The position numbers and the translations under genes are program-made. The notes under the pieces were generated by a model. The model saw only the letters and a list, made by a program, of their open reading frames with translations. It had not been told where the DNA came from and searched no databases. Source: Anaerolineales bacterium UBA6092 (GTDB lineage Bacteria > Chloroflexota > Anaerolineae > Anaerolineales > UBA4823). Taken from it: a stretch of DNA of 64,000 bases. Position 1 is the stretch's first letter. Every line of letters begins with the position of its first letter. Shown one piece after another: positions 3,688 to 24,498 of the stretch. The stretch is from assembly GCA_002428565.1 (NCBI GenBank), contig DIXA01000026.1:5435-69434 (forward strand). The letters run 5' to 3'.

Positions 3688-6600
3688 GTGTTACAATTTA
3701 TGCACATGAGCCTCGCCATCCACATCTTCGGCAAGCCCAGCCTGTTGATTGATGCCACCCCGGTGCGCTTTGCCGCCCCTCCAAAAACCTTTCCTTTGCT
3801 GGCTTACTTGCTGCTGCACCGCTCGCAGCCGGTGGATCGACAGCAGATCGCTTTTGCCCTGTGGCCGGATGACCCTGAAGCCAGCGGGCGCTCCAATTTG
3901 CGCCGCCACCTGCACCACCTGCAGCGCGCCTTGCCGCCGCCCGCGCCCGGGCGCCCCTGGCTGCTGCTGGAGGGGGCAACCGTACAGTGGAATCCGCAGG
4001 CAGATTACTGGCTGGATGTAGCCGAGTTCGAGCAGGGCATTGCCCAGCCCGAAACCCTGGCCCAGGCCGTTCCGCTCTACCGCGGCGACCTGCTCGAAAC
4101 CGTGTATGATGACTGGGTTTTCTTTGAGCGCGAGCGCCTGCGCGAAGCCTGCTTGAATGCGCTTTACCAGTTGGCGGTGCAGTGCCGCGCCCGCTGCCAG
4201 TACAGCGAGGCCGCCGCCTACGCACAGCAGATCCTGAACCACGAGCCGTTCCGCGAGGATGCCCTGCGCCAGCTGATGGCGGCGCGCTACCAGGCAGGCG
4301 ATCGCGCCGGGGCGATGGCCGAATACGAGCGTTTTACCCGCCAACTGAGCGATGAGATGGATGCCGAACCCATGCCGGAAACACGCTCGCTGCATGAGAT
4401 CGTGCTCCACAACGGCCGCCTGATGGGAGAGACCACCCCGCCGCCGGTTGAAAACGCACCTGCCCAAACCCAGCCCGCGCCACCCGCTTTCGTGGGGCGG
4501 CAACCCGAGATGGCCCGGCTGGCCACATTGTGGAACCGGGCCGCCCGCGGGCGCGGCGGGCTGGTATTGTTGAGCGGAGAAGCCGGGGTAGGGAAATCGC
4601 GCCTGGTGAGCGAGATGGCCTTGTCGGTTGAAAGCCAGGGGGCGCGCCTGCTTTACGGGGCTACCCCCCCGGATGGCGAGCATCCTTACCAGGCGGTGAG
4701 CGAAGCGCTGCAGACGGTTCTGCCTATGCTGGCAGACCCCGGCGAAGACATGCAGCAATTGGCCGCCCTGGCCGCGCTGCTGCCCGAGCTGCGCCAACGC
4801 CTGCGCCTGCCCACGCTGCCCGATCTGGAGCCAGACCGGGAGAAGCTGCGCCTCTTCGACGCCATTGCCACCAGCCTGGAGAGTTTGGCCGCGCCCCGCC
4901 CACTGCTCATCGTCCTGGAAGACTTGCACTGGGCCGGGGCCTCTACCCTGGAGCTGGTGGAATTCCTGGCCCGCCGCGCCGCCAACGGCCCCCTGCTGCT
5001 GATCGCCACTTACCGCGAGGAGGAAATCCCGCGCAGCCACCCCTTGCGCGGCCTGCGCCAACGGCTGCGGGCCGAAAAGATTGCCGAACACATCGCTTTA
5101 CACTGCCTGGATGTGGCTGCCGTGAGAGCGCTGGCAGAAGATACCCACCTGCCGGGCGCTGCCGAGATGGCCCAACGCCTGCACACCGCCAGCGAGGGCA
5201 ATCCCTTATTCTTGAGCCTGCTCTTGCGGCACTGGCAAGAAACCGGCTCGTTGGCAGAGGCGCACCTGCCCCAGGATATCCGGGCAGCCATCTCGCAGCG
5301 CCTGACGCACCTCAGCCCGCTGGGACGCGCCTATGCCGAGGTGGCGGCCATCCTGGGCCTGACCTATGACGCCGAGGCCGTGCGCGAAATCGGCGGCTGG
5401 GAAGAATGCCAGGCCCTGGATGCCCTGGGCGAACTGCTGGACCGGCGCGTCTCACGCGATGTGGGGCGGCAGGATGAATATATCTTTGCCCATCACCTGG
5501 TGCAGGCCACCCTGTACCATGAGATCCCTGCCAAGAAGCGCCGCCAGCGCCACCGTCGCGCCGCCGAGGTATTGGAAGAACTGTATCCCGAGCGAGGCGA
5601 CGAGCTGGCTGGGGCTTTGGCAAAACACTACGACCTGGGCGGCGCGGCGCAGCGCGCCATCCCCTATTATCGGCGCGAGGCCCAAGGGCGCCTGGCGCTC
5701 TTTGCCGACCCCGAAGCGCTGGCCGCGCTGGACCGCGCCCTGGCATTGGCCAGCCAGGGGGCCTTCACATCGCCGCGTGACACCCTGGAGCTGCTCTTGC
5801 TGCGCGAGAGCATTTACCGCCGCCACGGCGAGCGGCCGCAGCAGAAGGCCGATCTTGAGCAGATGGAAGGGTTGGCAGCCACCCTGCAAGATCCTGCGCT
5901 TACCTGCGAGATCTTAAAGCGCCGCATCCTCTACTATCGAGGCATCGATGATTACCTCGCCGTGAAGCAGGCGGTGGATGAACTAAAGCACCAGGCGCAG
6001 GCCCTGGGCAGCCCGCTCTGGCAGACCGAAGCAGCTCTGGCAGAAGGCAATTATTACAAGCTGATCCACGATATGCCTCAAGCAATTGCCCGGCTGCAAG
6101 ATGTCTTGGCAAGCTACCAGGCGCTGCACAATTCCCCACAGCAGGTGCTATGCTGCTGCCAGCTGAGCGAGATTTATATCAACCAACGCCAGGTCGACGA
6201 AGCCGAACGCTGGGCGCAAAAAGCGCTGGCGCTTTGCAGCGGCGAAGCGCCAATCTATCACCTGCTGAATACGTTGTGGAACCTAAGCGCCAACGGGTTG
6301 ATCGCGAATGACCTGGAACGCTGCCTGGAATATGCCGGGCAACTGCTCAGCGCCGCAGAAAGGGCCAGCGACCGCACCTGGCAAGCCGCTGCCCACCGCC
6401 TGATGGGCATGGCTTACCAGCGCCAGTTCCGCATTGCCCAAGCGCGCCAGCACCTGGAAGAAGCCCTGCGCCTGTACAGCTTGATCCAAAAAACCAAGGG
6501 CCGCAGCCTGACCCTGCAAAGCCTGGGACACCTGGCCTTATCGCTGGGGCACTACCCTGCGGCAAACAGCCTTTACCAGCAGGCCCTGGAGATCGAGGAA

Positions 6601-7188
6601 CGGATGGGCTATGTGGAAAACATGGCCAACGAATGCATCAACCTGAGCTACGCGGCTTCTTTCCAGGCAGATTATGCCGCCGAGCAGAAATATGCCCAGC
6701 GGGGGGTCACGCTGGCACGGCAGGTTTCAAACCGCTACCTGGAGGCCATGGCCCTGCAAAACCTGGGGGAAGCCGAGCGCGAGCTGGGTGACCTGGCGGC
6801 AGCCCGCCGGGATTTGCACGCCGCGCTGAGCATCCTGGAAGAGCTTGCCCTTACCAAGGATCGCATCAGCGTGCTCAGCGACCTGGCGCTGGCTCACTGG
6901 CAAGCCGGCGACCTGCCCCAGGCCCTGCAATGCGCCGCAGAGATCCTCGCCTGCTATCCTGAGGTGGAGGGCCGCGATGACAACACCCAGCGCTATTTGT
7001 GGTCCGCGGCGCGCATCTGGCATGCCGCCGGGCAGGCAGAGCAGGCCGGGCAAGCCCTGGCCCAGGCCTATCACACTTACCAGCAGGCCCTGGCTGCCAT
7101 CCCCGATCCCGAATCGCGCCAGGCGTTTGCCCAAATGCTGCACAACTGCCAGATCGTCGCCGCCCAAGAACGCGGCGTGTGGGCCTAA
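3688..7188 (+). CDS. SARP/BTAD - AAA(NB-ARC-like) ATPase - TPR transcriptional regulator (AfsR-like architecture), reg1
   Basis: N-terminal winged-helix plus BTAD (FPLLAYLLLHRSQPVDRQQIAFALWPD...YRGDLL...DWVFFERERL). Walker A is LLSGEAGVGKSRL. Long TPR-like C-terminus. The real start may be ATG 3700 or 3706, because a TACAAT hexamer sits at 3692-3697. Confidence 0.85.
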   Translation: MLQFMHMSLAIHIFGKPSLLIDATPVRFAAPPKTFPLLAYLLLHRSQPVDRQQIAFALWPDDPEASGRSNLRRHLHHLQRALPPPAPGRPWLLLEGATVQWNPQADYWLDVAEFEQGIAQPETLAQAVPLYRGDLLETVYDDWVFFERERLREACLNALYQLAVQCRARCQYSEAAAYAQQILNHEPFREDALRQLMAARYQAGDRAGAMAEYERFTRQLSDEMDAEPMPETRSLHEIVLHNGRLMGETTPPPVENAPAQTQPAPPAFVGRQPEMARLATLWNRAARGRGGLVLLSGEAGVGKSRLVSEMALSVESQGARLLYGATPPDGEHPYQAVSEALQTVLPMLADPGEDMQQLAALAALLPELRQRLRLPTLPDLEPDREKLRLFDAIATSLESLAAPRPLLIVLEDLHWAGASTLELVEFLARRAANGPLLLIATYREEEIPRSHPLRGLRQRLRAEKIAEHIALHCLDVAAVRALAEDTHLPGAAEMAQRLHTASEGNPLFLSLLLRHWQETGSLAEAHLPQDIRAAISQRLTHLSPLGRAYAEVAAILGLTYDAEAVREIGGWEECQALDALGELLDRRVSRDVGRQDEYIFAHHLVQATLYHEIPAKKRRQRHRRAAEVLEELYPERGDELAGALAKHYDLGGAAQRAIPYYRREAQGRLALFADPEALAALDRALALASQGAFTSPRDTLELLLLRESIYRRHGERPQQKADLEQMEGLAATLQDPALTCEILKRRILYYRGIDDYLAVKQAVDELKHQAQALGSPLWQTEAALAEGNYYKLIHDMPQAIARLQDVLASYQALHNSPQQVLCCCQLSEIYINQRQVDEAERWAQKALALCSGEAPIYHLLNTLWNLSANGLIANDLERCLEYAGQLLSAAERASDRTWQAAAHRLMGMAYQRQFRIAQARQHLEEALRLYSLIQKTKGRSLTLQSLGHLALSLGHYPAANSLYQQALEIEERMGYVENMANECINLSYAASFQADYAAEQKYAQRGVTLARQVSNRYLEAMALQNLGEAERELGDLAAARRDLHAALSILEELALTKDRISVLSDLALAHWQAGDLPQALQCAAEILACYPEVEGRDDNTQRYLWSAARIWHAAGQAEQAGQALAQAYHTYQQALAAIPDPESRQAFAQMLHNCQIVAAQERGVWA

Positions 7189-10946: not shown

Positions 10947-13172
10947 ATGGCTAATGAATCACCAACCGTTCTTGACTATGTAAAGTCCCTCCTGAAGGGC
11001 AAACCCATCCATATACCCCCTTTGCCGAGTCAACTAGAGGCATACGTTTCTCAAGAGGGGGGGGCATCCCCAGAACAGACTTTTACCCCCATCGCACCTG
11101 AACTTGCGGTTGTGGAACCAAAAGCCGATTTGACTGGCGCTTCAATTTCTAACGATATCATCATTCCGCCTCCGCCTGCACAGCCAGTGGAATTTCCCTG
11201 GCGCGCCCTGGGGGCGTTGGGGCTGGCGTTGGCGGCGCAAATTTCTCTCGAACCGCGCCCAGATCGCGGCTGGGCCATCGGGGCAATCTTGTATTTCCTG
11301 GCCGCGGTGTGTGTCCTTTGGGCCAACGCCAGGCATGAGTGGAAGACGAGCGCCCTGCCTGCTCACACCGAAGGCAGCGCGGATTACCGGGTGCGCCCGA
11401 TCGCTATCTACATTGGCCTGCCGTTCGTGCTGCTGGCCTTCCTGTCATTTAGCGACAACCGTTTCACGGGCATCAATGTCACCCTGTGGCTGTTAGCCAT
11501 TGCCTGCTTCCTGTGGGCATTCTGGCAGCCCCGCCTTGCCGCGTCGGCAGGCACTTCCAGCTGGGCGTGGGTCAAGAGCCTGCCCAGCCAGTTGCGTTTG
11601 CCCTGGAAGATCTCCTTCTCGGGTTGGGCGCTGCTGATCCTGGCGGCGAGCGCGCTGGTGATCTTTTTCCGCATCTACCGCCTGAGCCAGGTGCCGCCCG
11701 AAATGGTCAGCGACCAGGCCGAGAAGTTGTTGGATGTGTGGGATGTGCTGAATGGCCAGGCGAGCATCTTTTTCTCACGCAATACAGGCCGCGAGGCCTT
11801 TCAAATGTATTTGACCGCAGCGGTTATCAAGGTCTTTGGCACAGGATACTCGTTCCTTAGCCTAAAGATTGGTACGGTTTTGTGCGGCCTTCTCACGCTG
11901 CCTTTCATTTACGGGTTGGGAAAAGAAGCAGGCAACCGCCGTGCAGGGCTGTTTGCGATGGTGTTGGCTGGGGTTGCGTATTGGCCAAATGTGGTCTCGC
12001 GGGCAGGGCTGCGGTATACGCTTTATCCATTCTTTGCCGCCGCTACGCTCTACTTCCTGGTGCGAGGGCTTCGCTCACGTAAGCCCAATGATTTTCTGTT
12101 AGCGGGGTTATTCTTGGGAGCCGGGTTGCATGGCTACAGTCCCTTTCGCATTGTGCCATTTGTGGTCATAGCGGCCATACTTTTGTATGTGCTGCATCGC
12201 CAGTCGCAGGGTGCCCGGTGGCAAGCGTTCTGGTGGCTGGGAATCGTGACGGTAGTGTCCCTGGTTGTTTTCCTGCCCTTGCTGCGTTATATGGTTGACG
12301 ACCCGAACATGGTTGCCTACCGCGCCCTCACGCGTATCGGTTCATTGGAACGACCACTTCCCGGCCCAGCCTGGCAGATCTTCCTAAAAAACCTATGGAA
12401 CGCGTTGACTATGTTTGCATGGGATAATGGCGAGGTTTGGGTAATTTCGATTCCACACCGTCCGGCGTTGGATATCGTCTCGGGGGCGCTCTTCCACCTG
12501 GGCGTAGTGCTGGTATTGGTGCGCTACCTGCGCCAGCGTCACTGGCTGGATATTTTCCTGTTGGTTTCGATACCGCTGCTATTGTTGTCCTCGATCCTTT
12601 CGCTGGCTTTCCCCTCTGAGAATCCTATCCTGAACCGCACAGGGGCCGCCTTTGTGCCTGCTTTTGTGATGATTGGCTTGGCACTGGACGGTTTGTTGAC
12701 GGGGATTGAGCAGAAAATGGCGACCTGGGGGAAGTCACTGGGTTGGGGGCTGGCGCTGGTGCTGATTGCCTGGTCTTCATTTAACAATTATGATCTGCTA
12801 TTTATCCAATATCAGAACCTTTACAAGCAATCGGCCTGGAATACAAGCGAAATGGGCCAGGTCGTTCACGATTTCGGTGAAATTTTTGGGTCTACCGAAA
12901 CGGTCTGGTTGGTTGGTTATCCCTATTGGGTAGATAGCCGCCTGGTAGGTATCAACGCGGGCGTGGTAACGCGCGACATGGCCATCTGGCCGGAGCAATT
13001 CTCAACCACTTTGAGCGAACCACGCGCCAAGATGTTCCTGATCAATCCGCAAGATGAAGCTTCGGCCAATCTCTTGCAGCAGGTCTACCCCCAGGGGGCG
13101 TTAATCCTGTACGACTCACGCGTGGACAAGGATTTTTATATCTACCTGGTTCCACCACAGATATCAAAGTAG
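10947..13172 (+). CDS. GT-C fold glycosyltransferase, ArnT/PMT (GT39/GT83)-like, polytopic membrane protein
   Basis: 741 aa with many TM helices. Contains LKIGTVLCGLLTLPFIYGLGKEAGNRRAGLFAMVLAGVAYW...YTLYPFF...LGAGLHGYSPFR, typical of PMT_2-type enzymes. Confidence 0.7.
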   Translation: MANESPTVLDYVKSLLKGKPIHIPPLPSQLEAYVSQEGGASPEQTFTPIAPELAVVEPKADLTGASISNDIIIPPPPAQPVEFPWRALGALGLALAAQISLEPRPDRGWAIGAILYFLAAVCVLWANARHEWKTSALPAHTEGSADYRVRPIAIYIGLPFVLLAFLSFSDNRFTGINVTLWLLAIACFLWAFWQPRLAASAGTSSWAWVKSLPSQLRLPWKISFSGWALLILAASALVIFFRIYRLSQVPPEMVSDQAEKLLDVWDVLNGQASIFFSRNTGREAFQMYLTAAVIKVFGTGYSFLSLKIGTVLCGLLTLPFIYGLGKEAGNRRAGLFAMVLAGVAYWPNVVSRAGLRYTLYPFFAAATLYFLVRGLRSRKPNDFLLAGLFLGAGLHGYSPFRIVPFVVIAAILLYVLHRQSQGARWQAFWWLGIVTVVSLVVFLPLLRYMVDDPNMVAYRALTRIGSLERPLPGPAWQIFLKNLWNALTMFAWDNGEVWVISIPHRPALDIVSGALFHLGVVLVLVRYLRQRHWLDIFLLVSIPLLLLSSILSLAFPSENPILNRTGAAFVPAFVMIGLALDGLLTGIEQKMATWGKSLGWGLALVLIAWSSFNNYDLLFIQYQNLYKQSAWNTSEMGQVVHDFGEIFGSTETVWLVGYPYWVDSRLVGINAGVVTRDMAIWPEQFSTTLSEPRAKMFLINPQDEASANLLQQVYPQGALILYDSRVDKDFYIYLVPPQISK

Positions 13173-13337: not shown

Positions 13338-13991
13338 TTAACCGGTAGTCAGTCGGGGCGACGAACCACCTCTCAACAAAAAGGTCAGTGCAAACCCTGC
13401 GATAAATCCGCCGATGTGGGCCATGTAAGCCACACCACCTGTCTGCGCTGGGCCGACAATCGAACCGATGCCGCTAAATAACTGCAGAACGATCCAGAAC
13501 CCAATCACGATCAGCGCGGGCACCGGGATGACTCGTTGTCCCTGCAATACTTTTACGCTTCCCTTAGGGAACAGTAAAATGTAAGCGCCAAGCACCCCCG
13601 CAACCGCCCCCGATGCTCCCAAATTGGGCACATCTGAGTTGAGGCTAAACGCCAACTGGGCAAAAGTTGCCGCAAGCCCACAGAGCAGGTAGAAGATGGT
13701 GAACTTAACATGCCCGAAACGATCTTCCACATTGTCGCCGAAGATCCATAAGTAGAGCATGTTGCCTCCCAGATGAACCAATCCGGCGTGCATGAACATG
13801 GACGTGAAAAGCGTGGGGAAATCACCGATGGGATTGGCAAGGAAGCGGCTGGGAACGAAAGCCCATTTCATAATAAAATCGTCACCGCCAGCCAGCTCCA
13901 CCAAGAAAAACAGGATGTTCAGAGCGATCAGCGCATACGTGACCAGCGGAATAGTTTTGCGAGAGCTATTATCATCACCAATTGGGAGCAT
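13338..13991 (-). CDS. rhomboid family intramembrane serine protease
   Basis: FMHAGLVHLGGNMLYLWIFG, GASGAVAGVLGAY (catalytic Ser) and HIGGFIAGF (catalytic His). Confidence 0.85.
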   Translation of the reverse strand: MLPIGDDNSSRKTIPLVTYALIALNILFFLVELAGGDDFIMKWAFVPSRFLANPIGDFPTLFTSMFMHAGLVHLGGNMLYLWIFGDNVEDRFGHVKFTIFYLLCGLAATFAQLAFSLNSDVPNLGASGAVAGVLGAYILLFPKGSVKVLQGQRVIPVPALIVIGFWIVLQLFSGIGSIVGPAQTGGVAYMAHIGGFIAGFALTFLLRGGSSPRLTTG

Positions 13992-16159: not shown

Positions 16160-16801
16160 TTATAGATGCATCTCCTTCTCCAGGCGAAAGGCAGCTGGTA
16201 AAAGTTCACCATATCCCTGCAGACTTTCTCGCAGGCGCAGGCGGGCGCGAGCCAGGCGGCTCTTGACCGTGCCCAACGGCACGCGCACAACACTGGCCGC
16301 TTCACGGTAGTTCATGCCTAAAACATCCACCAGCACAACCATAGTGCGGAAGTCTATGGGCAGGGCGTTCAGGCAGCGCTGGATGGCGCGTTCGAGTTCA
16401 GCCGCCTCAAATTGATCTTCCGGCAATAAACCCGGATCGGCCAACCAGGGCGGAGTTTCTATTTCCTCGCCATCATCATTGGCAGGCTCAAGCGCCACCA
16501 TAGGATGGCGCTTTTGGCGGCGCAGTTCATCGTAACAGGCATTGGTAACAATGCGCATCAGCCAGGCTCTGAGGGAGCCGCCGCGAAAATGATGCATGCT
16601 GCGATAGGCCGAACAGAAAGCCTCTTGTGTGGCGTCGTCGGCAAGTTCATGGTTGCCGAGAATACGCAGGGCAACGTTGAAAAGAGAATCCTGATGGGTT
16701 AAGACAAGATGGTTGAAAGAGTCCAGGTCGCCGGGCTGGGCATCAAGGATAAGCATCGGATTTGTGGAGAGTACCTGTTCTTGATAGATTAACTGATCCA
16801 T
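16160..16801 (-). CDS. ECF-type RNA polymerase sigma-70 family factor
   Basis: Region 2 is FNHLVLTHQDSLFNVALRILGNHELADDATQEAF...LRAWLMRIVTNACYDELRR. Region 4 is NYREAASVVRVPLGTVKSRLARARLRL. ATG 16801 (MDQLIYQ) is preferred, because the upstream ORF extension runs through the palindromic repeat. Confidence 0.85.
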   Translation of the reverse strand: MDQLIYQEQVLSTNPMLILDAQPGDLDSFNHLVLTHQDSLFNVALRILGNHELADDATQEAFCSAYRSMHHFRGGSLRAWLMRIVTNACYDELRRQKRHPMVALEPANDDGEEIETPPWLADPGLLPEDQFEAAELERAIQRCLNALPIDFRTMVVLVDVLGMNYREAASVVRVPLGTVKSRLARARLRLRESLQGYGELLPAAFRLEKEMHL

Positions 16802-16862
16802 TTTGTGACCATTTTGCTGAGTCGATATGGAGTTCCTCACAACTGCAGCAGCACTTGTTGGA

Positions 16863-16951
16863 ACTTTAGAACCAATCCGGAAATTGAGGGAGAGGTGGGT
16901 GTTTGGCCGGGCGTAGCCCGGCCAAACACCCACACCCCCAGAATTTTCGGA
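16863..16951. repeat. about 85-bp quasi-palindromic repeat, copy 2 (inverted), in the sigma-gene leader
   Basis: By eye, the reverse complement matches 15738-15826 at most positions. Lies between the SARP-box promoter (16967-16996) and the sigma start codon. Confidence 0.7.
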
Positions 16952-17051: not shown

Positions 17052-18731
17052 TCACCGGAAAATCAAAGGCAAGAGAACAGTGTGGGTGTACACAGGTGGT
17101 TCAGTCTCTAGCGCCAGAATGCTGGCCGCCCATAAGATGCAATCGGGCGAGTTATTGTCTCCGAGCGGATCGTTGGAGATGGTGGTGGTAGCGTCGGGTT
17201 CGACAATCAAGCCGCTCACATCGAATCTCAATGTGGCCCAAAAATCGCCGTCCACCCCATTGAATACACCGTTGGCGATATTCTGACCCTCAAAGGAAAT
17301 GCTGCCATCGTCCCACTGCGTCTGCCCGTCTCCAATGAGATAAGTGATGTGGACCTGTGCAACAGGCTGATCGGCCGTAAAGGGGCCCAGGAGATCTGAA
17401 AAGGTACTGGTCACCAGGTCAAGGGTCACCGCGCCATCATGAATGATCACGGTGCGGAAAAGACCAGGAGCTCTGTAAATCACTACCAGTGATGCACCTT
17501 GCGAGTCGTTGCCACCCGCCAGGTAACTCGGCAGTCCGCTGATCGTGTAATCTCCATTGCCGTCTACCAGGCTGGTTACCTCAGCCCGGTAAACAAAGTT
17601 GGCTGGCGCACCCCAGCAGGTATCTCCTGAGGTGCCAATACGCTGCCCGCTCACGGTATTCCCATCGAACTGCACGTTGGTATACACGTCCGAGCCGCCC
17701 AGAGTGGCCCAGTAAAGGAAGGCTCGCTCCACTTTGCTGTTAACAGGGACACCCGAGAGGTTGATCGTCCCCTGCCCGATTCCGCGCAGGCCCACGCCGG
17801 CTGAGGTCACGTCTCCAAACAGTGTTTGATGGAAGGATTCGGACATCTGGTTGCTCGTTTGCGGGGCGGCAGCCGTTACGGAAAAAATAGTGGCGACCCA
17901 CAACAGGCAGTCTGTCTGGCTGGGGTCGCTCGGATCGCTGTTGCTCAACGTGGTCGCCGCGCTGCTGCCGCTCGTCAGGCTGGTCACATCAAATGTGGGC
18001 GAATCCCAATACAATCCATCTTCTTCGGAGAATGCCCCGCTCGCCAGTAGCGTTTCGTTGAAGGTGGCGTTGTCTCCATCCCACTCGGCCTGCCCATCGC
18101 CCACCAGATAGGTGACCTGCGCATTGTCTACGGGAGAACTGGCTGTAAACCCGCGGATGGTGTTGGTATAACTTGTGGGATCAAAATTGAGGGCCACCGC
18201 GCCATCATTGATCACAATGGTGGTCAGCGGGGCAGTGCTCTGACGGTAGACCACTACCAGGGATGCCCCCTGAGAGTCATTGCCTCCAGCCAGGTTGCCT
18301 GGCAGCCCGGCTATTGTATAGATTCCGTTACCGCCCACCAGATTGGTTACATTGGCGCGGTACACAAAATTATTCTGTACACCCCAACAAGTGTCACCCG
18401 TAGTGCCGATTAACTGTCCGGCAGCGGGCTGGCCGTTCAGGGTTGGCTGCATGTACGTGTTGGCGAAGCCCAGCGTTGCCCAATAAAGATAGGCCTGGTA
18501 AATGCTGGCTCCGATCGGAACGCCGGTCAGGTTGATCTGCCCGCTGCCAACCCCGCGCAGGCCCACCCCTGCATCCGTTACACCGCCATACAGGGTAAAT
18601 ACCTGAAACTGCCCCAGAGCGTTATTTCCGCTTGAAATCTGCTGTGCTGCTGCCAAAGGCGCATGCCCAAGCAGGGCAATCAACAGAGATAGCCCTGCAA
18701 CAATCGTTAGCCAATGATTTAATCGTTTCAT
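17052..18731 (-). CDS. secreted protein made of two tandem ~270-aa homologous modules (possibly DUF3344-like); C-terminal LLPLIFR tail
   Basis: Signal peptide MKRLNHWLTIVAGLSLLIALLGHAPLAAAQ. Both halves carry GVGLRG.G.G.INL.GVP...YLYWATLG...GDTCWG...NFVYRA.VT.LV.GNG.YTI.GLP..LAGGNDSQGASLVV.YR. Ends in VLLPLIFR. Confidence 0.75.
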   Translation of the reverse strand: MKRLNHWLTIVAGLSLLIALLGHAPLAAAQQISSGNNALGQFQVFTLYGGVTDAGVGLRGVGSGQINLTGVPIGASIYQAYLYWATLGFANTYMQPTLNGQPAAGQLIGTTGDTCWGVQNNFVYRANVTNLVGGNGIYTIAGLPGNLAGGNDSQGASLVVVYRQSTAPLTTIVINDGAVALNFDPTSYTNTIRGFTASSPVDNAQVTYLVGDGQAEWDGDNATFNETLLASGAFSEEDGLYWDSPTFDVTSLTSGSSAATTLSNSDPSDPSQTDCLLWVATIFSVTAAAPQTSNQMSESFHQTLFGDVTSAGVGLRGIGQGTINLSGVPVNSKVERAFLYWATLGGSDVYTNVQFDGNTVSGQRIGTSGDTCWGAPANFVYRAEVTSLVDGNGDYTISGLPSYLAGGNDSQGASLVVIYRAPGLFRTVIIHDGAVTLDLVTSTFSDLLGPFTADQPVAQVHITYLIGDGQTQWDDGSISFEGQNIANGVFNGVDGDFWATLRFDVSGLIVEPDATTTISNDPLGDNNSPDCILWAASILALETEPPVYTHTVLLPLIFR

Positions 18732-18783
18732 CTCATTTTCTCCTTATGCTTGGGGGTGCTGTTAGAGCCAGATAGATGTTTAT

Positions 18784-19620
18784 CTACTTATCAATGAGGG
18801 AAAGGTCAGGGGGTGATGAAGAAACAGGTCGGGCGATAATGATCAGGCGGTATGCATTGCCGTCCGGCGGCCAGCACGTTACCAGGGTTAACCGTTCGTC
18901 AGCCGTGGGGTAGATGTACTGTGCATTCGCCTGGCGGATCTCTACCGTTTGGCCGTAATCTTCCAGGATCAATTTTTGTTCCACGCGATAGACACGCTCT
19001 TGGCTGGCAGTATACAGCGTGATCAGATCCCCCACTGCAAGGTCGATTAGATTCTCAAATACTCTGCCACGGATATTATGATGACCATCCAGCACCGTGT
19101 TTCCCGCCACGCCCACAGGCGCCGAGGTCTTGAGCCAACCGGCGGCAAAATGATCGGGCACATCCCAGATGTTCACCGGCTGACCATTGCGGGTTTCGGT
19201 GTGCCAGCCCACTGTTTCTACCGGCGCATCCAGCCCGATCGCCTCGATCACCAGGCGCGTTGGCGTTCTGTCTTCATCGGGCTGGGCCGTCTCAACAGGT
19301 TCGCTGATCTGGCTGGTAGGGTTACTGCTGATAGCTGTGCTGGCGACCTCCAGGACAAAAGCGAGTGTCTCAGGTGTGCTGGTGGGTGATGGAACCACAA
19401 ATACCGTTGGAGCGGGTTCGAAACTATCAGAACCATCAGATTCTCCGGTAGCTAACAAAAATTCGACCATCTCGGGAGAAACGAGCAGGACAGGTTGCGT
19501 ACTTGCCGGTGTTTCACTGGGTTTAAGGCTGGCTGAAGAAACGTAGCTCACGATGGATATCGCCAGCAATAACCCAACCACCAGGGTTACGTTTGCAGCA
19601 TGGCGTAGATTCGTGTGCAT
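18784..19620 (-). CDS. sortase family transpeptidase (membrane-anchored)
   Basis: N-terminal TM helix. Sortase fold motifs are NTVLDGHHN (His), LTLVTCWP (TLxTC Cys) and YRLIIIARP (Arg). Confidence 0.8.
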   Translation of the reverse strand: MHTNLRHAANVTLVVGLLLAISIVSYVSSASLKPSETPASTQPVLLVSPEMVEFLLATGESDGSDSFEPAPTVFVVPSPTSTPETLAFVLEVASTAISSNPTSQISEPVETAQPDEDRTPTRLVIEAIGLDAPVETVGWHTETRNGQPVNIWDVPDHFAAGWLKTSAPVGVAGNTVLDGHHNIRGRVFENLIDLAVGDLITLYTASQERVYRVEQKLILEDYGQTVEIRQANAQYIYPTADERLTLVTCWPPDGNAYRLIIIARPVSSSPPDLSLIDK

Positions 19621-19626
19621 GCGGTA

Positions 19627-22578
19627 TCACCTTTCAGGTGTGTTCTGAATGACGATTGGCAGATAGATCTGGCTGGCCCACGGCAGGATGTTCCGGTTTA
19701 GCCTGAGGGCCGGGTCTCCTAAAAGCGTAAAGGTATCCAGCAAGTCGAGATGCTGGCCGGTAGCAGCCAGAGACAATTTGCCGCCCCAGGCAGCCTGCCC
19801 CACAGTGAGCGTCGTAGCACTCAGCGGGTCGCTGAAAACAACTTGAAAGAAACCCTCGTCTAAGCTGTTGTGACCGGTGCTGACTCCCAGGCCGGTTGCG
19901 CCCCAGGTAGCGACAGCGCCTGCGCCATCCAGGGTAAGCAATCCTTCATCCAGGGTAGGCTCAGGCCTGTGGAACGCGCTGGTAAAGCAAGTCATCTCGA
20001 TCACGATCGGCCAGCGGCGGTCATTGTGCAGCACGGGCAAATCGCCCAGGTCAAGAAATCGCTCCAGGGCCCATTGTTGCCACGATGAATGACCGGCATA
20101 GTGGATCAGCAATGCGCCGGTGTTCCAACTATTCAACACGGCCTGGCGGGTGGTCGTAATCGTTGTGGTGGATGGTGTGAAATAAATCCGCTGTGCTATG
20201 AAAGGCGGAGTCACATAAGCCGTAGCCAGCATCTCTGACGCAGCCGCAAAGTTACCCGCCTCATCGGCGTTGTCGGCCACAAAAGTCACCTTCTGGTTCC
20301 AACCACCCAGAACAGGATTGGTTTCATATTGCACAATTTTATCTACCACGGCTTGCGTCTCGGTCAATGTTTTGACCGGCAGGCGGCCGATCAGCATATC
20401 GGGCAGCGCGTCTTGCCCGTCCACCGTCACATAGCGATTATCGGCAGCCGTTTCGCCTGCCCATGGATCTACGTTGGCCAGGTAAGGCGGGATGAGCGTG
20501 GGCGGCGATTCGATGCGGTATTGCCTGGGGTCAAAGCTCCCATCGCCGACCAGCACCACATAGACGGGAGGTAAAGTCCAGGCGGCGTAAGCATACGCCA
20601 GGTAAGCGCGGATGGCTGCCGGGTCAGGCCGCCCATCGCCGTAGGCAGCATAGATGGCTTGTACATCTTCAACCGCCACGGTCAGCCCTTGCGCCTGGCG
20701 CAGACTGATCAAACTGTCCAGTGCAGGCATGAAATCTGCCGGTGCGATCAAAACATAGTCAGCGCCGGCAAAGTCGCCGCCCGTTTGCAACGCTTGCGCC
20801 GGGCGCATTGCAACCGGGTACAGCAATCCACTTTCCGTTGTCAGCATGTAGCGATGGGACCGGCCATCCCACTCGCCCCCCAATGGATCGCCGAATGTAA
20901 TCGTGTTCTCGGTCGTAACCACGCCGGTCAGGCGCAGTGGAAGACCAGGGTCCGTGATGTCGTAAACGCGCAGTCCAATGGTGGAACTGAATGCCAGCGT
21001 ATACGCGTGCGGCGCCGGCTGACCGCTGAAGGTGACCGAGTGACCAAAAGGAGCACTTCCACGCGCCGCGCGGATTGAAAAGGCATCCAGCCAGGCGCCC
21101 TCAATGCTCACACCCGGTATGCCGGGCAGCGTCAGGGTGAGGGTGTTGGCGCCACCGTGCAAGGTACCGGGGAGGATGGGCAGCGTGGCTGTGGTCGGTT
21201 GCTTACCATCCCAAACCAGGCTGCCTACCGACACGCCGTTGAGATCTACGTCCACTCGATGGTCGGGGGCAGCGGCGAGGTCGGTGTAGCCAATCAGCCA
21301 CACGGTCAGGGTAGCCGGCTGCGTCGCCTCCAGCGGGGGCAGGTTGATCGAATAGGAGGCGGTTGAGTGGCCAGGGCGTTTCAGATCATCCCATGTCCAG
21401 TGGTCGCCATCGCGCCCTGGAGGAATGAACCCACAAAAACAATCCGGGGTATACCACCGATTTTCCTCGGCCGTCTCTTCGATCCAGGCAATCCCGGCCG
21501 GTAGACCGAGCGGGGCGGCCGGGCGGTCTTGGATACGCAGGCCGGGCGTATCACCTTGCCAAAGGAAGTAGATGTCGGTAGACGTCCACCGGCTGAAGCG
21601 CGGTTCGGCATAAAAAAGCAGGCGTTCACCCGGCTCAAAGCGGTTATCCTCATCGCCGTCCCATTCGGTCGCTATCTCGGTTCCGGCGCGAGATAGATGT
21701 AAAGCGTGCGGGTCGGTACTCGCCACAGGAAAACCCATCTCCGTCAGGGCTGCATACGTGATCGCAGTTAAGCCAGGCGAAGCGACCTCAATGATCCAGG
21801 CCGATCCGACCTCGTTAGGATTTGATGTTGGGATTATGGGCCTTACAGGCCGAACTTGCTCTGGGTTGATGACCATCGAGCGCAGCACGGTTAACATTGG
21901 GTCGGTCGACACAGCCCAAGGCTGGCTGGCAACCTCTCCTGCAAAAGTCAGCGCCACGCGCACATAGGTCGTCAGGCGCAGGTGAGTCTGGGGAGAGTCG
22001 CCGACCAGGCGGGCCGGGTAGAACACCAACCGTGCCAGGGTTACGCCGCGCACCACGCCAGCAGGCTCAAGTCTGACAGGACTATCTACGCTGCTTTGAG
22101 CCAGTTGAACCGAGGCGGTGGCTGAAAGGTCGCCCGCTGCCGAAAAGGCGCCTCCCACGGGAAGGCCGGACGAATCCCGTTGGATGCCTTCAGGGAACGG
22201 TGCAAGCGCCAACGGGCCGGGCACAGATCGATCTGTCTCTTCGACCAAAACCACATGCAGGGTTGGAAGCGCCCCAGGCGGCACAGCCACCAACACGGAA
22301 GTGAACGGCAGCCGCGGCGCGCCAGGCTGGGCGGTTTGCGAAGTACCGGGCAGCCGCACATCCGTGCTCCCATCAGAGAGCAGCACCATGTTCGCCTCAG
22401 GGACGCGCCAATCTACCAGCAGGCCATCGGGTGTGACGACCACAACCGGGTCCACAGAGAGTGCTGGCGGCAAAGCCGATGCTTTGCCGCCAGCGATACC
22501 AGTAAGCGCGCTTCCCAAAACGATCAGGCAGGCTAACAACCGGTTCAGGGTTGAGCGCGTCCTCTTTTGCTTGGCCAT
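19627..22578 (-). CDS. peptidase C25 (gingipain-like) family protein; secreted; C-terminal IYLPIVIQNTPER tail
   Basis: ADYVLIAP..F...L..L...R..QGLTV..V....IY...GDGRPD..AIR.YL, LLIHYAGHSSWQQW (His) and IVIEMTCFTSAF (Cys). Has a signal peptide. Confidence 0.8.
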   Translation of the reverse strand: MAKQKRTRSTLNRLLACLIVLGSALTGIAGGKASALPPALSVDPVVVVTPDGLLVDWRVPEANMVLLSDGSTDVRLPGTSQTAQPGAPRLPFTSVLVAVPPGALPTLHVVLVEETDRSVPGPLALAPFPEGIQRDSSGLPVGGAFSAAGDLSATASVQLAQSSVDSPVRLEPAGVVRGVTLARLVFYPARLVGDSPQTHLRLTTYVRVALTFAGEVASQPWAVSTDPMLTVLRSMVINPEQVRPVRPIIPTSNPNEVGSAWIIEVASPGLTAITYAALTEMGFPVASTDPHALHLSRAGTEIATEWDGDEDNRFEPGERLLFYAEPRFSRWTSTDIYFLWQGDTPGLRIQDRPAAPLGLPAGIAWIEETAEENRWYTPDCFCGFIPPGRDGDHWTWDDLKRPGHSTASYSINLPPLEATQPATLTVWLIGYTDLAAAPDHRVDVDLNGVSVGSLVWDGKQPTTATLPILPGTLHGGANTLTLTLPGIPGVSIEGAWLDAFSIRAARGSAPFGHSVTFSGQPAPHAYTLAFSSTIGLRVYDITDPGLPLRLTGVVTTENTITFGDPLGGEWDGRSHRYMLTTESGLLYPVAMRPAQALQTGGDFAGADYVLIAPADFMPALDSLISLRQAQGLTVAVEDVQAIYAAYGDGRPDPAAIRAYLAYAYAAWTLPPVYVVLVGDGSFDPRQYRIESPPTLIPPYLANVDPWAGETAADNRYVTVDGQDALPDMLIGRLPVKTLTETQAVVDKIVQYETNPVLGGWNQKVTFVADNADEAGNFAAASEMLATAYVTPPFIAQRIYFTPSTTTITTTRQAVLNSWNTGALLIHYAGHSSWQQWALERFLDLGDLPVLHNDRRWPIVIEMTCFTSAFHRPEPTLDEGLLTLDGAGAVATWGATGLGVSTGHNSLDEGFFQVVFSDPLSATTLTVGQAAWGGKLSLAATGQHLDLLDTFTLLGDPALRLNRNILPWASQIYLPIVIQNTPER

Positions 22579-22640
22579 TCAGCACACACTTTTCATAAGC
22601 TATCCAACTGCCCAAAGCCTGCCCGACATTGACTGAACCT

Positions 22641-23753
22641 TTACTTTCCCAAGAGGGGAAGATAAAGCTGGTACAGGTAAGGTTGCATCAGAGCAGTAAC
22701 CGACACATTGTGAATCTGTTCCTGCCCTTGGGTATCCACATCGACCAGCCAGTAATACCATGAACCAGGGTACGGCACGGTGTCCATGTAGGCGTAAGTC
22801 GCGCCCGTGCTGCCCTGAGGGGCTGCCGGCTCAAAGTGGATCAGGCTGGCCTGCCCCAGATCATCCACACTGGCGCGGTAGAGGTTGAAGCCAAAGTTAT
22901 CCACCTCTAGCGCAGTGGCCCACTCTAAGTTCACCTGTGGGTTGATCCAGCGGACGGCCCGGAAGTAAAGCAATTCCACCGCGGTGGGGATGCAGATGGG
23001 ACGGGTGATAGTGTTTTGGTCCATCGTCACGGCAGCATCTTGCACCAGGGCCCGGCCAGTCAAGTTTGCACCGGTCGCCAGGCTGATGCTCGTCTGCGCC
23101 AGAATATTGCCTGCAAACAAACTGTTCGTGGCAAGAGTCGCAGAGCTGCCAACCCGCCACCACACATAGCAGGGTTCACCACCACTGGAAAGAACGACAT
23201 TGGCACCGCCTGTGGTGATGAGTGTGCCCGCCGATTTGAAAATCCACACATCTTCGGCGGCGCCATTGAGGGTGAGTACTCCCGACAACTCAAAGTTATC
23301 TGCACAATAGACGCCTGGCACGAGGGTTAAGGTTGCCAGATCCTGAGTCCCGATATAGGTCGTAGTGCACGCCTGGCTGCTAAGCACACCGAACGCGCCG
23401 ACCAGGTCGGTTTTCGCTGTGGTCAGCAGGGTGGGTGAAACTACTGAACCGGCTGGCCCGGTCGCATCCACGGCGTAGATCGTGCCCGTGACGATATCGG
23501 TGAGCCCTAAACCGGTGTAGTTGCTGCCGGCGGCTGGACTCAAGCCAACATCCCCGCTGATGGCAGAAGGATTGAGGTTTGTGATGGCCGTTGCGGCTAG
23601 AATCGCAAAGCTATCTGCCTTACCGAGCGGCGGCGAGAAGGCTGCAGGTGCGGCTGTTGCAGGAACGGGTCCAGAAAACAAGGCGATGATGATGAGTAGG
23701 CTGGCAAGTCGAGTGACATGCCGGGGAAGGATCGTATTAAGCATGCGGAACAT
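22641..23753 (-). CDS. DUF3494 (ice-binding-like fold) secreted protein with a C-terminal beta-sandwich-like domain and LYLPLLGK tail
   Basis: FAILAATAITNLNPSAISGDVGLSP...LVPGVYCADNFELSGVLTLNGAAEDVWIFKSAGTLITT...VWWRVGSSATLATNSLFAGNILAQTSISLATGANLTGRAL. This is the classic DUF3494 pattern, recalled from memory. Confidence 0.75.
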   Translation of the reverse strand: MFRMLNTILPRHVTRLASLLIIIALFSGPVPATAAPAAFSPPLGKADSFAILAATAITNLNPSAISGDVGLSPAAGSNYTGLGLTDIVTGTIYAVDATGPAGSVVSPTLLTTAKTDLVGAFGVLSSQACTTTYIGTQDLATLTLVPGVYCADNFELSGVLTLNGAAEDVWIFKSAGTLITTGGANVVLSSGGEPCYVWWRVGSSATLATNSLFAGNILAQTSISLATGANLTGRALVQDAAVTMDQNTITRPICIPTAVELLYFRAVRWINPQVNLEWATALEVDNFGFNLYRASVDDLGQASLIHFEPAAPQGSTGATYAYMDTVPYPGSWYYWLVDVDTQGQEQIHNVSVTALMQPYLYQLYLPLLGK

Positions 23754-23764
23754 GAGACACCTCC

Positions 23765-24208
23765 TTATACTTTCGTTTTTGTTTTGTCCACCTGGTAGGT
23801 GACCAAGATGGTGACGAGGATCAAAAGAGCCATCGCTCCCAAGAGCAATACAGTGCCCATTCCATTGCTCAAACCACTTGCCTGCCCGCCGGTGACCGGC
23901 ATTTCAGGCGTGTTTTCGGGCGTTGACTGCGTTGGTTGCGTGGGCGCTGCCGTAGCCGTGGTGGTAGGCAGCCCAGCCGTGGCGGTAGAAGTGGCTGTAG
24001 CCGTAGCAACGACCGCAGCCGTAGAAGTGGCTGTAGCCGTAGGCGGTACAGCGGTGGCGGTGGCAGTAGACGTGGCCGTAGGCAGCTCAACAGTAGGCGT
24101 CGGCGTAAAACCGGCTAATGCTGGCGAAACCTGCCAGGCCATGGTGACTAAGACCACAAGCAAAGTCCAGACACCCAATATTTTGATAGCGATCCGTTTT
24201 GGTAACAT
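23765..24208 (-). CDS. small Thr/Ala/Pro-rich surface protein with an LPXTG-like sorting signal (MPVTG + TM + basic tail)
   Basis: Signal peptide, then a low-complexity TATATS region, then EMPVTGG (23888-23902), the hydrophobic stretch GTVLLLGAMALLILVTILV and KTKTKV. Confidence 0.75.
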   Translation of the reverse strand: MLPKRIAIKILGVWTLLVVLVTMAWQVSPALAGFTPTPTVELPTATSTATATAVPPTATATSTAAVVATATATSTATAGLPTTTATAAPTQPTQSTPENTPEMPVTGGQASGLSNGMGTVLLLGAMALLILVTILVTYQVDKTKTKV

Positions 24209-24436
24209 AGAGAACCTCCTTTTACTTCTTACTTCCTATTGTGATGGGCAGGGGTAATTACCTGCCCAGGATCAGTTGATTTGACCTTGGTTGTTATGCA
24301 ATCGGCTGAAAGCAACTTTACAAAAAAGAGCTATATCTCAGCCGATTGCTTCAGGGATTAGCCGATGTTCGCCATCATGTTCAGTTAAAACACTTTCGGC
24401 CAATCACATATTGCCTTCTCAATTGACTCTAACTTA

Positions 24437-24466
24437 AGTATAGTAAGCAAGCGTCTCAAAAGCGTC
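24437..24466 (-). promoter_or_regulatory. SARP-box-like promoter of the sortase/C25 operon
   Basis: Minus strand reads GAGACGC-tttt-GAGACGC-ttgcttac-TATACT, about 229 nt upstream of the start codon at 24208. Confidence 0.45.
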
Positions 24467-24498
24467 TCAAACACCCCAGGCTGTATTTGGCAGATCAG

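Follow-up and report, generated by a model that had tools for sequence, protein, structure and literature searches.

A PorU-like C25 peptidase, a short C-terminal tail and a sortase-linked stalk as a candidate surface-protein sorting module of Anaerolineae

A five-gene operon of Anaerolineales bacterium UBA6092 raises the question why a sortase, a gingipain-like peptidase of family C25 and several unrelated secreted proteins should be encoded together. The operon lies on the minus strand of a 64-kb stretch of contig DIXA01000026.1, which is the whole stretch of DNA analysed here and is called the window in the following. The locus is best explained as the expanded, lineage-specific form of a module for surface-protein sorting with a wide distribution in the Anaerolineae, a class of Chloroflexota. 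This module would have as its invariant core a secreted PorU-like C25 cysteine peptidase together with an immediately upstream cargo protein, which ends in a fibronectin type III (FnIII)-like C-terminal domain (CTD), a linker and a very short terminal motif referred to as the YLP tail. The core is often accompanied by a sortase and by a small LPXTG stalk protein, which is rich in Thr and Pro and has an N-terminal tip motif, and the version found in the window would in addition have captured a tail-bearing DUF3344 client and a gene for an extracytoplasmic function (ECF) sigma factor.

Surface display in prokaryotes is decided by C-terminal sorting systems such as those of sortases, exosortases, archaeosortases, rhombosortases, myxosortases and of PorU in the secretion system of type IX (T9SS), and each of these discoveries opened a field. 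To our knowledge, sorting of the PorU type is restricted to Bacteroidota and their T9SS, and we know of no T9SS in Chloroflexota, the envelope architecture of which is debated. Anaerolineae are filamentous and abound in activated sludge, in anaerobic digesters and in sediments, and their surface and sheath properties affect flocculation and bulking. What is new at this locus is that a PorU-like enzyme is apparently paired with a very short signal lacking a transmembrane (TM) segment, and this outside of a T9SS. The signal marks proteins ranging from small beta-solenoids to adhesins of 5000 amino acids (aa) and could help to predict which proteins the Anaerolineae display on their surface. Moreover, the repeated linkage to a sortase and to a minimal stalk points to a composite mechanism of anchoring. 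A full-text literature search yielded no description of this system.

The PorU-like peptidase, its cargo and their conservation

The listing of open reading frames (ORFs) reproduced the minus-strand genes and the gaps reported in the initial annotation of the window. These genes encode, from upstream to downstream, a stalk protein of 147 aa (24208-23765), a cargo protein of 370 aa (23753-22641), the C25 cysteine peptidase of 983 aa (22578-19627), a sortase of 278 aa (19620-18784) and a secreted two-module DUF3344 protein of 559 aa (18731-17052), separated by 11, 62, 6 and 52 nt, respectively. The window matches a JGI metagenome contig of 109.9 kb, and the identical five-gene order was seen on contigs from two further samples. 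The domain assignments of that annotation were likewise recovered as Pfam matches to Ice_binding/DUF3494, Peptidase_C25, Sortase and DUF3344, and the ECF sigma gene that it had placed downstream of the operon is present at 16160-16933, as identified by Pfam.

The C25 peptidase matches Peptidase_C25 (PF01364) with 288 bits (cut-off 23; E 1.6e-85) at residues 608-960, covering the entire profile. It is composed of a signal peptide, a gingipain-type pro-domain (residues ~40-215), beta-sandwich middle domains and the catalytic domain (residues 606-962). The catalytic dyad is formed by His830 (nt 20089-20091) and Cys864 (nt 19987-19989), which align with His211 and Cys244 of RgpB and with the dyad of PorU and are invariant in 185 of 185 C25 homologues; Asp163 of RgpB, the S1 specificity position, falls into an alignment gap. 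The nearest NCBIfam model is T9SS_sortase/PorU (NF033707; E 3.4e-72, residues 299-962), the closest solved structure by sequence is that of latent PorU (PDB 6za2, E 1e-20), followed by RgpB and Kgp, and the N-terminal domain matches gingipain pro-domains in sequence comparison. PorU was also the best Foldseek match (E 9e-24 over 684 columns) of an AlphaFold2 (AF2) model with a predicted local distance difference test score (pLDDT) of 72, and gingipain catalytic domains and pro-domains were matched with TM-scores of 0.58 and 0.62, respectively. Neither Pfam (2025) nor NCBIfam release 20 holds a specific model for this C25 family. The enzyme ends not in a T9SS-type CTD but in a YLP tail of 12 aa (YLPIVIQNTPER-COOH; 19630..19665, minus strand). 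The gene call of JGI (P0001, 920 aa) begins 63 codons downstream of the start of the 983-aa ORF; the signal peptide is present only in the longer form, the start of which is also used by another source.

More than 310 full-length relatives of this protein, annotated by their sources as Anaerolineae or Thermoflexales, were found, and a profile scan of one genome per species resulted in 292 stretches with a related C25 gene. Loci were compared for the best 80 of these 292 stretches, i.e., for 81 loci including the window, with C25 identities to the window protein from 81 % down to 37 %. Wherever the best 80 are named they bear Chloroflexota-type names, and they derive from Anaerolineales, Thermoflexales, Caldilineales, Ardenticatenaceae/Promineifilaceae, Ca. 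Amarolinea, Ca. Leptofilum, Litorilinea and Thermoflexus. Components were counted in a strict set of 44 loci with at least 3 kb on both sides of C25 and, for the sortase, by a looser criterion in 70 loci with at least 1.5 kb of downstream flank. An initial search with the window proteins had suggested DUF3494 upstream in most loci, a sortase in the closest relatives only and DUF3344 nowhere. Unbiased clustering of all flanking ORFs revealed a same-strand downstream sortase in 21 of the 70 loci, distant lineages included. In the strict set, the cargo CTD was found at 38 loci, the stalk at 23, a same-strand sortase with intact His and Cys at 14 and all four components at 10. The four-component loci show three gene orders, namely cargo-C25-stalk-sortase, stalk-cargo-C25-sortase as in the window, and cargo-stalk-sortase-C25, so that the co-localisation of stalk, sortase, cargo and C25 survives gene shuffling, which argues for functional coupling.

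The initial annotation had proposed both a pairing of sortase and C25 peptidase, to be checked by neighbourhood conservation, and a five-gene operon. The pairing recurs at loci that span several Anaerolineae orders, but the full five-gene set is lineage-specific, the DUF3344 gene being absent from all 80 other C25 loci. Beyond cargo, stalk and sortase, no recurrent neighbour emerged in the 80 loci, and no T9SS genes recur in these neighbourhoods. Other genes shared by Promineifilaceae-type loci, i.e., those for an MFS transporter, a Ser/Thr kinase, a CocE-like hydrolase, a prephenate dehydrogenase and a cation exchanger, were set aside as housekeeping synteny, and the ending LLLPLT of the CocE-like hydrolase is probably coincidental. 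The metagenome-assembled genome (MAG) CAZHFU01 contains two C25 loci (L003 and L067). One of them is similar to that of the window and has an Ice_binding cargo, a stalk and a sortase; the other encodes a cargo of 3284 aa, and a TP-rich protein with the tip motif (c82) replaces the LPXTG stalk. This suggests paralogous enzyme-cargo pairs.

The cargo protein of the window consists of a signal peptide, an Ice_binding/DUF3494 passenger (PF11999; residues 51-250; 165.5 bits, cut-off 28.7, E 1.7e-48) and a C-terminal module, which begins with PTAVELLYF at residue 256 and includes the FnIII-like CTD (22689..22988, minus strand) and the tail YLPLLGK-COOH (22644..22664, minus strand). As the protein scores below the cut-off of the NCBIfam ice-binding-protein equivalog (124.8 vs 400), no ice-binding function is implied. 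For the comparison of the flanks the cargo was split in two. The Ice_binding half occurs at 14 loci, all of them having both parts, and the C-terminal ~115 aa form the extreme end of the protein encoded upstream of C25 at ~60 loci, 46 of which have this part alone. The DUF3494 beta-helix, which had been regarded initially as a partner within the module, was thereby ruled out as a conserved partner of C25, and it is the CTD with its tail that is conserved. Directly upstream of C25 and in the same orientation, 52 of 60 loci encode a cargo ending in CTD and tail; by the stricter flank criterion the number is 38 of 44. The passengers ahead of the CTD differ completely between loci and range from ~340 to 3300 aa, the largest being built of SdrD_B, SpaA/Cna-B, DUF11 and GEVED domains. 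Since only the C-terminal module recurs among these variable passengers, the conserved pair is formed by C25 and a variable passenger bearing this module.

The alignment of the CTD follows the pattern PTAVELLYF...V.L.W.T..E.DNFGF.LYR...ATY.Y.D...WWYWL.DVD...HGP and continues with a variable linker of 8-20 aa and the invariant L-P. AF2 predicts a seven-strand beta-sandwich (pLDDT 88) followed by flexible linker and tail, for which Foldseek retrieved generic FnIII domains. Pfam and NCBIfam gave no match to the CTD even at E<=1-10, Por_Secre_tail included, and a sequence profile search of the PDB found nothing, so that a specific likeness to the CTDs of the T9SS was not found. A word-indexed search with the CTD profile gave little more than short fragments. 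With a profile of CTD and tail, an exhaustive HMMER search resulted in 19,085 representative clusters at E<=1e-10. Of the 146 top representatives, 95 have the strict tail, CTD and tail standing at the exact C-terminus of proteins of 126-5710 aa. Homologues that carry the CTD as internal repeats end in canonical T9SS type-A CTDs (GIYFYRL...KKMVLIK) or in anchors composed of a TM segment and basic residues, which means that the YLP tail stands where homologous proteins carry known sorting signals. Eight such proteins (P0161, P0194, P0210, P0228, P0235, P0241, P0269 and P0300) have 3-14 tandem copies of the FnIII-like domain ahead of a canonical T9SS type-A CTD; the FnIII-like domain family is thus common to T9SS-bearing bacteria and Anaerolineae.

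The YLP tail, the stalk and the sortase

The tail has the C-terminal consensus [YF]-L-P-Φ-Φ-x-[RK], Φ being a hydrophobic residue, and in C25 proteins it extends to P-W-A-x-x-[VTI]-[YF]-L-P-[LI]-[VI]-x-R-COOH. When scored as a regular expression on the last 12 residues, with internal 12-aa windows as background, it was found in 57 of 79 C25 homologues (72 %) and in 42 of 63 upstream proteins (67 %), compared to 15 of 602 other ORFs and 0.53 % of the internal windows, corresponding to a ~100-fold enrichment at C-termini. Among the 185 C25 homologues, Pro is conserved in 180, Leu in 170 and Tyr/Phe in 165. The Pro is followed by two to three hydrophobic residues and usually a single Arg or Lys; the TM helix and the Arg-rich cluster of tripartite sorting signals are absent. 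The presence of such a tail on three of the five products of the operon, noted initially, stands far above chance (YLPLLGK in the cargo, YLPIVIQNTPER in the peptidase and LLPLIFR in the DUF3344 protein, nt 17055-17075, minus strand). As a signature motif, the tail is found at the very end of many proteins of one lineage that are otherwise unrelated. No entry of Pfam (2025), NCBIfam release 20 or the PDB sequences covers the CTD or the tail.

Next to its place behind the FnIII-like domain, the tail also ends proteins lacking this domain. These are the C25 peptidase itself as well as secreted proteins encoded at dispersed sites, among them the DUF3344 protein and the beta-helix proteins between 45.8 and 50.5 kb of the window. 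The latter belong to a second group, in which three consecutive secreted proteins encoded 23 kb from the C25 gene (45837-50513, minus strand) end in variants of the tail: two beta-helix/NosD proteins have IYLPMMVKK and IYLPMTVKK, respectively, and one BNR_4/Big_13 protein has VWIPYVGRR. These proteins probably belong to the clients of the YLP-tail system as well. A motif LPSYG, which the initial annotation had named as a test peptide for the enzymes of the operon, is not present there, and the DUF3344 protein contains an internal GLPSYLAGG instead. The motif probably stems from a 2555-aa FG-GAP repeat protein (50934-58601, minus strand), which ends in PTAVTLVAFRA...PLPSYG followed by a TM segment and RRRAKQRG. 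Its PTAVTLVAFRA is the first strand of the same FnIII-like CTD, here followed by a wall anchor of LPxxG type. Within one lineage, this CTD element apparently can be followed by either anchor.

The stalk protein was described initially as a Thr/Ala-rich product with an MPVTG anchor, and its features agree with this. A signal peptide ending in the signal-peptidase site A-L-A|G is followed by the tip motif GFTPTPT (nt 24092-24112), a Thr/Ala-rich spacer, MPVTG (residues 103-107; nt 23888-23902), a hydrophobic TM segment of 18 aa (23795-23848) and the basic tail KTKTKV, and relatives have LPETG, LPATG or LPQTG. Although the protein belongs to no Pfam family and its sorting signal is matched by no profile hidden Markov model, this arrangement is that of an LPXTG-type signal and the stalk is predicted to be a sortase substrate. 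In other lineages, small genes between C25 and the sortase encode proteins of the same build, with a signal peptide, a Thr/Pro-rich spacer (in some cases with DUF11), LP[AEQS]TG, a TM segment and a basic tail. A pattern scan identified LPXTG-type stalks on the same strand within the cluster at 38 of 81 loci, 18 of which have no adjacent sortase. All stalks share the tip motif [G/A]-[ILVFM]-T-x-T-P-[TSPAM] directly after the signal peptide. Six-frame translation of the ORFs, amounting to 1.15 million residues, contains no more than 36 occurrences of this motif, and of the 29 that come after a signal-peptide-like segment 27 lie within ~1.5 kb of C25. In two loci (L049:12772-14055 and L061:12737-13690) a signal peptide, the tip motif of the stalk and a spacer rich in Thr and Pro are fused to the N-terminus of the sortase, and in two others (L041 and L066) the tip motif heads small non-LPXTG proteins beside C25.

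The sortase (PF04203; 75.4 bits, cut-off 26.6, E 4.2e-21) has an N-terminal membrane anchor and the residues His180 (LDGHHN), Cys249 (LVTCW) and Arg258 (YRLIII). In the linked sortases, His180 and Cys249 are invariant (24 of 24) and Arg258 is part of a conserved Y-x-x-R-L motif, and all 21 downstream-linked sortases keep an intact TLxTC motif. The enzyme fits none of the NCBIfam models of classes A-F, the best being class E with 53.4 bits at a cut-off of 160. A second type of sortase is encoded directly upstream of C25 in three Caldilineales-type loci. Just past the RNB gene that lies downstream of the operon, the window contains a gene for a PMT_2 protein, which is similar to protein O-mannosyltransferases (10947-13172, plus strand), and a rhomboid protease gene (13338-13991, minus strand), the latter of which recurs near C25 in L006, L013 and L078 (cluster c22). 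As a speculation, the Pmt-type enzyme could glycosylate the Thr-rich stalk.

A C-terminal sorting system and its alternatives

With moderate confidence, we favour a system of PorU type that sorts or processes proteins at the C-terminus by way of a new signal and that in many lineages is combined with sortase anchoring of a minimal stalk. All components would be exported by the Sec pathway, as suggested by their signal peptides. The sortase would cleave the MPVTG and anchor the stalk to the cell wall, in line with its family membership and with the canonical tripartite signal of the stalk. The C25 peptidase would recognise and process the YLP tail as a C-terminal sorting signal, as PorU does with the CTDs of the T9SS, and the cargo would thereby be fixed or matured on the cell surface; the gene linkage, the conservation of the tail and the homologues with other known sorting signals at the same position point into this direction. 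By analogy to the uncleaved CTD of PorU, the enzyme itself may be held at the surface by its own tail. The idea of two different C-terminal processing enzymes, put forward in the initial annotation, remains the best reading, and an assembly of sheaths or fibres by the module is possible, as the cargoes include 3000-aa adhesins of SdrD_B, SpaA and DUF11 domains.

PorU works together with PorV, PorZ and PorQ and with the T9SS translocon in a diderm cell. It removes the CTD of T9SS cargo, a seven-strand sandwich of 67-108 residues with a critical C-terminal motif, acts as signal peptidase and as sortase-type transpeptidase, can transfer the cargo to anionic lipopolysaccharide and keeps its own CTD uncleaved (PMC11285876, PMC4560394). 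The Anaerolineae module resembles this system in several respects. The two have in common a cysteine peptidase of family C25 that possesses a His/Cys dyad, PorU being the best match by sequence and fold; in both, unrelated passengers share a C-terminal seven-strand beta-sandwich of ~70-110 aa with a conserved end of hydrophobic residues and Lys/Arg; the enzyme carries the signal itself; and in other phyla, relatives of the FnIII-like domain are found in proteins with a genuine T9SS CTD at their end. However, the host of the window belongs to the Chloroflexota and T9SS genes do not recur around C25, the cargo CTD resembles generic FnIII domains and has no match to Por_Secre_tail, the module has a flexible linker and an invariant [YF]-L-P, which T9SS CTDs lack, and it is accompanied by a sortase and an LPXTG stalk, which is not known from the T9SS.

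The system also resembles PEP-CTERM/exosortase, PGF-CTERM/archaeosortase, GlyGly-CTERM/rhombosortase and MYXO-CTERM/myxosortase, in that a short motif at the extreme C-terminus of many unrelated secreted proteins of one lineage is matched many-to-one to a family of endopeptidases and the gene of one client often neighbours that of the enzyme. Dispersed clients together with one enzyme-adjacent client are typical of sorting systems of the exosortase and myxosortase type (bioRxiv 10.1101/2023.06.07.544157). In contrast to these tripartite signals, the YLP tail has no TM helix and one basic residue instead of an Arg cluster, and the candidate enzyme is a soluble secreted cysteine peptidase and not an intramembrane protease.

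A number of observations weigh against a PorU-type sorting system. The C25 protein scores below the PorU equivalog cut-off of NF033707 (243.5 vs 420 bits), is aligned to model positions 62-734 of 1095 and lacks the C-terminal third of PorU together with its CTD. In the AF2 model the peptidase's own tail is disordered (pLDDT <50) and gives no hint of docking into the active site, and the gingipain-type pro-domain would fit an ordinary secreted protease equally well. Six of the 44 well-flanked C25 loci have no adjacent CTD cargo, and Promineifilaceae-type loci have neither a stalk nor a sortase nearby. The co-occurrence of tail and C25 is documented for the compared loci, the window and one 1.9-Mb contig only. 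Finally, all established small C-terminal sorting signals known to us contain a TM segment, whereas the YLP tail has none and could be an uncleaved binding motif.

The latter point leads to an alternative that is doubtful but has to be taken seriously, according to which CTD and YLP tail stay uncleaved and retain or bind the adhesins at the wall, S-layer or sheath. C25 would then be neither a signal peptidase nor a transpeptidase for the tail but a dedicated protease that cuts the cargo for maturation or release. The model for this is LapG-LapA, in which a giant repetitive adhesin is encoded beside a dedicated cysteine protease acting on its retention module. The giant SdrD_B/SpaA/DUF11 adhesins among the C25-adjacent cargoes, the pro-domain typical of secreted proteases, the lack of the TM segment that normally presents a signal to the sorting enzyme and the two C25-cargo pairs of one MAG (L003 and L067), which suggest cognate pairs of protease and substrate, would all fit to such a role. 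However, the tail is also found on the peptidase itself and on many unlinked proteins without CTD, which fits a general signal better and has no known counterpart in LapG-LapA. Moreover, the best relative of C25 by sequence and fold is PorU and not a gingipain, and the passengers vary freely with the C-terminal module alone being conserved. The two systems also differ in that the protease belongs to family C25 and not to BTLCP, and in that the conserved module is C-terminal and not N-terminal.

It is improbable that the YLP tail is a degenerate LP-type signal for the linked or a housekeeping sortase and that C25 is just another tail-bearing cargo, e.g., a nutritional protease. In favour of this, the L-P dipeptide is common to the tail and LPXTG, about one locus in three has a sortase linked to C25, and the sortase fits no established class. 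However, two thirds of the C25/cargo loci have no sortase nearby although C25 is always present, and the sortase-linked loci supply their own canonical substrates with LPXTG, TM segment and basic tail in the form of the stalks. The YLP tail also lacks the TM and charged retention segments that sortase substrates require (bioRxiv 10.1101/2023.06.07.544157), and the invariance of His and Cys in the 185 C25 homologues argues for a conserved enzymatic role in this context. Compared to known sortase anchoring, including that of two-sortase pili, the module has in common the membrane-anchored sortase with a His-Cys-Arg triad, the stalk with motif, TM segment and basic tail and the clustering with adhesin-type cargo of SpaA/Cna-B, SdrD_B and DUF11 domains. 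It is distinguished by a C25 peptidase as second enzyme, by adhesin-like cargoes that bear the YLP tail and not LPXTG, by a sortase outside the defined classes and by a stalk that is a Thr/Pro-rich spacer with a conserved tip and has neither a pilin domain nor a pilin-motif lysine.

A fortuitous clustering of unrelated secreted-protein genes, with the tail as a compositional quirk of Anaerolineae C-termini, would be in line with the lineage-specific addition of the DUF3344 and ECF sigma genes, but is very improbable and largely refuted by the 100-fold enrichment of the tail at C-termini and its concentration at C25 loci, by a CTD-cargo/C25 adjacency that persists to 37 % C25 identity and through shuffled gene orders, and by tail residues that are as conserved as the catalytic ones.

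The favoured sorting system might be extended to a relay of two transpeptidases without a T9SS, which we regard as unlikely and put forward tentatively. In such a relay the sortase would fix the stalk to the cell wall through its LPXTG signal, and C25 would cleave the YLP tail and ligate the C-terminus of the cargo to the amine of the N-terminal stalk tip. The tip [G/A]-Φ-T-x-T-P-T of window-type stalks is exposed exactly by the predicted signal-peptidase cleavage at A-x-A|G, and the concept of two cooperating transpeptidases is known from two-sortase pilus assembly. If this was true, Anaerolineae would build covalent surface fibres of wall, stalk and cargo with a PorU-type enzyme as protein-protein ligase, and the YLP tail would represent a new class of TM-less sorting signals used by thousands of proteins. 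A C25 transpeptidase with a short recognition tag would also be a possible tool for protein ligation.

The DUF3344 protein, regulators and the upstream region

The DUF3344 protein (17052..18731, minus strand) matches PF11824 in two stretches (70.4 bits, cut-off 27.2), and the internal duplication recognised initially is confirmed by halves that are 49 % identical over 245 columns. Approximately 70 two-module homologues keep the tail down to 40 % identity; distant DUF3344 proteins are without it. On a contig of 1.9 Mb, a tail-bearing DUF3344 gene lies at 0.36 Mb and the C25 locus at 1.49 Mb, i.e., 1.1 Mb apart, and another tail-bearing DUF3344 gene sits among transporters. As it is missing at the other C25 loci and stands alone elsewhere, more than 1 Mb from C25, DUF3344 was ruled out as a part of the module. 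In three relatives (L009, L013 and L078) the RNB gene follows directly after C25; in the window, the sortase, DUF3344, ECF sigma and Transgly_assoc genes lie between the two and, judged by this adjacency, look like an insertion. The ECF sigma gene is not conserved at the loci of the relatives.

A SARP-box promoter had been proposed upstream of the operon. In the intergenic region upstream of the stalk gene (24209..24498, minus strand) the corresponding element is merely a two-copy direct repeat of 11 nt (24449-24470), which is absent upstream of the orthologues in L003, L005, L006 and L016, and the SARP box was rejected. The region upstream of the operon showed no conserved binding site for regulators of SARP/AfsR type, scans for promoters and terminators did not exceed chance level in their counts, and Rfam had no match to a leader RNA or riboswitch anywhere in the window. 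The window itself encodes two large regulators of SARP/AfsR type (58945-62817, minus strand, and 3688-7188, plus strand) with BTAD, AAA_16 and TPR domains, the second having a Trans_reg_C domain as well. Homologues of these (cluster c20) are encoded a few kb from the sortase in L001 and L007, which are close relatives.

The 5' leader of the stalk gene contains a perfect inverted repeat of 12 nt (GCAATCGGCTGA at 24298-24309 and TCAGCCGATTGC at 24338-24349, 28 nt apart), which is, like the direct repeat, specific for the window among the relatives compared. A second short hairpin is located just upstream of the ribosome-binding site of the stalk gene.

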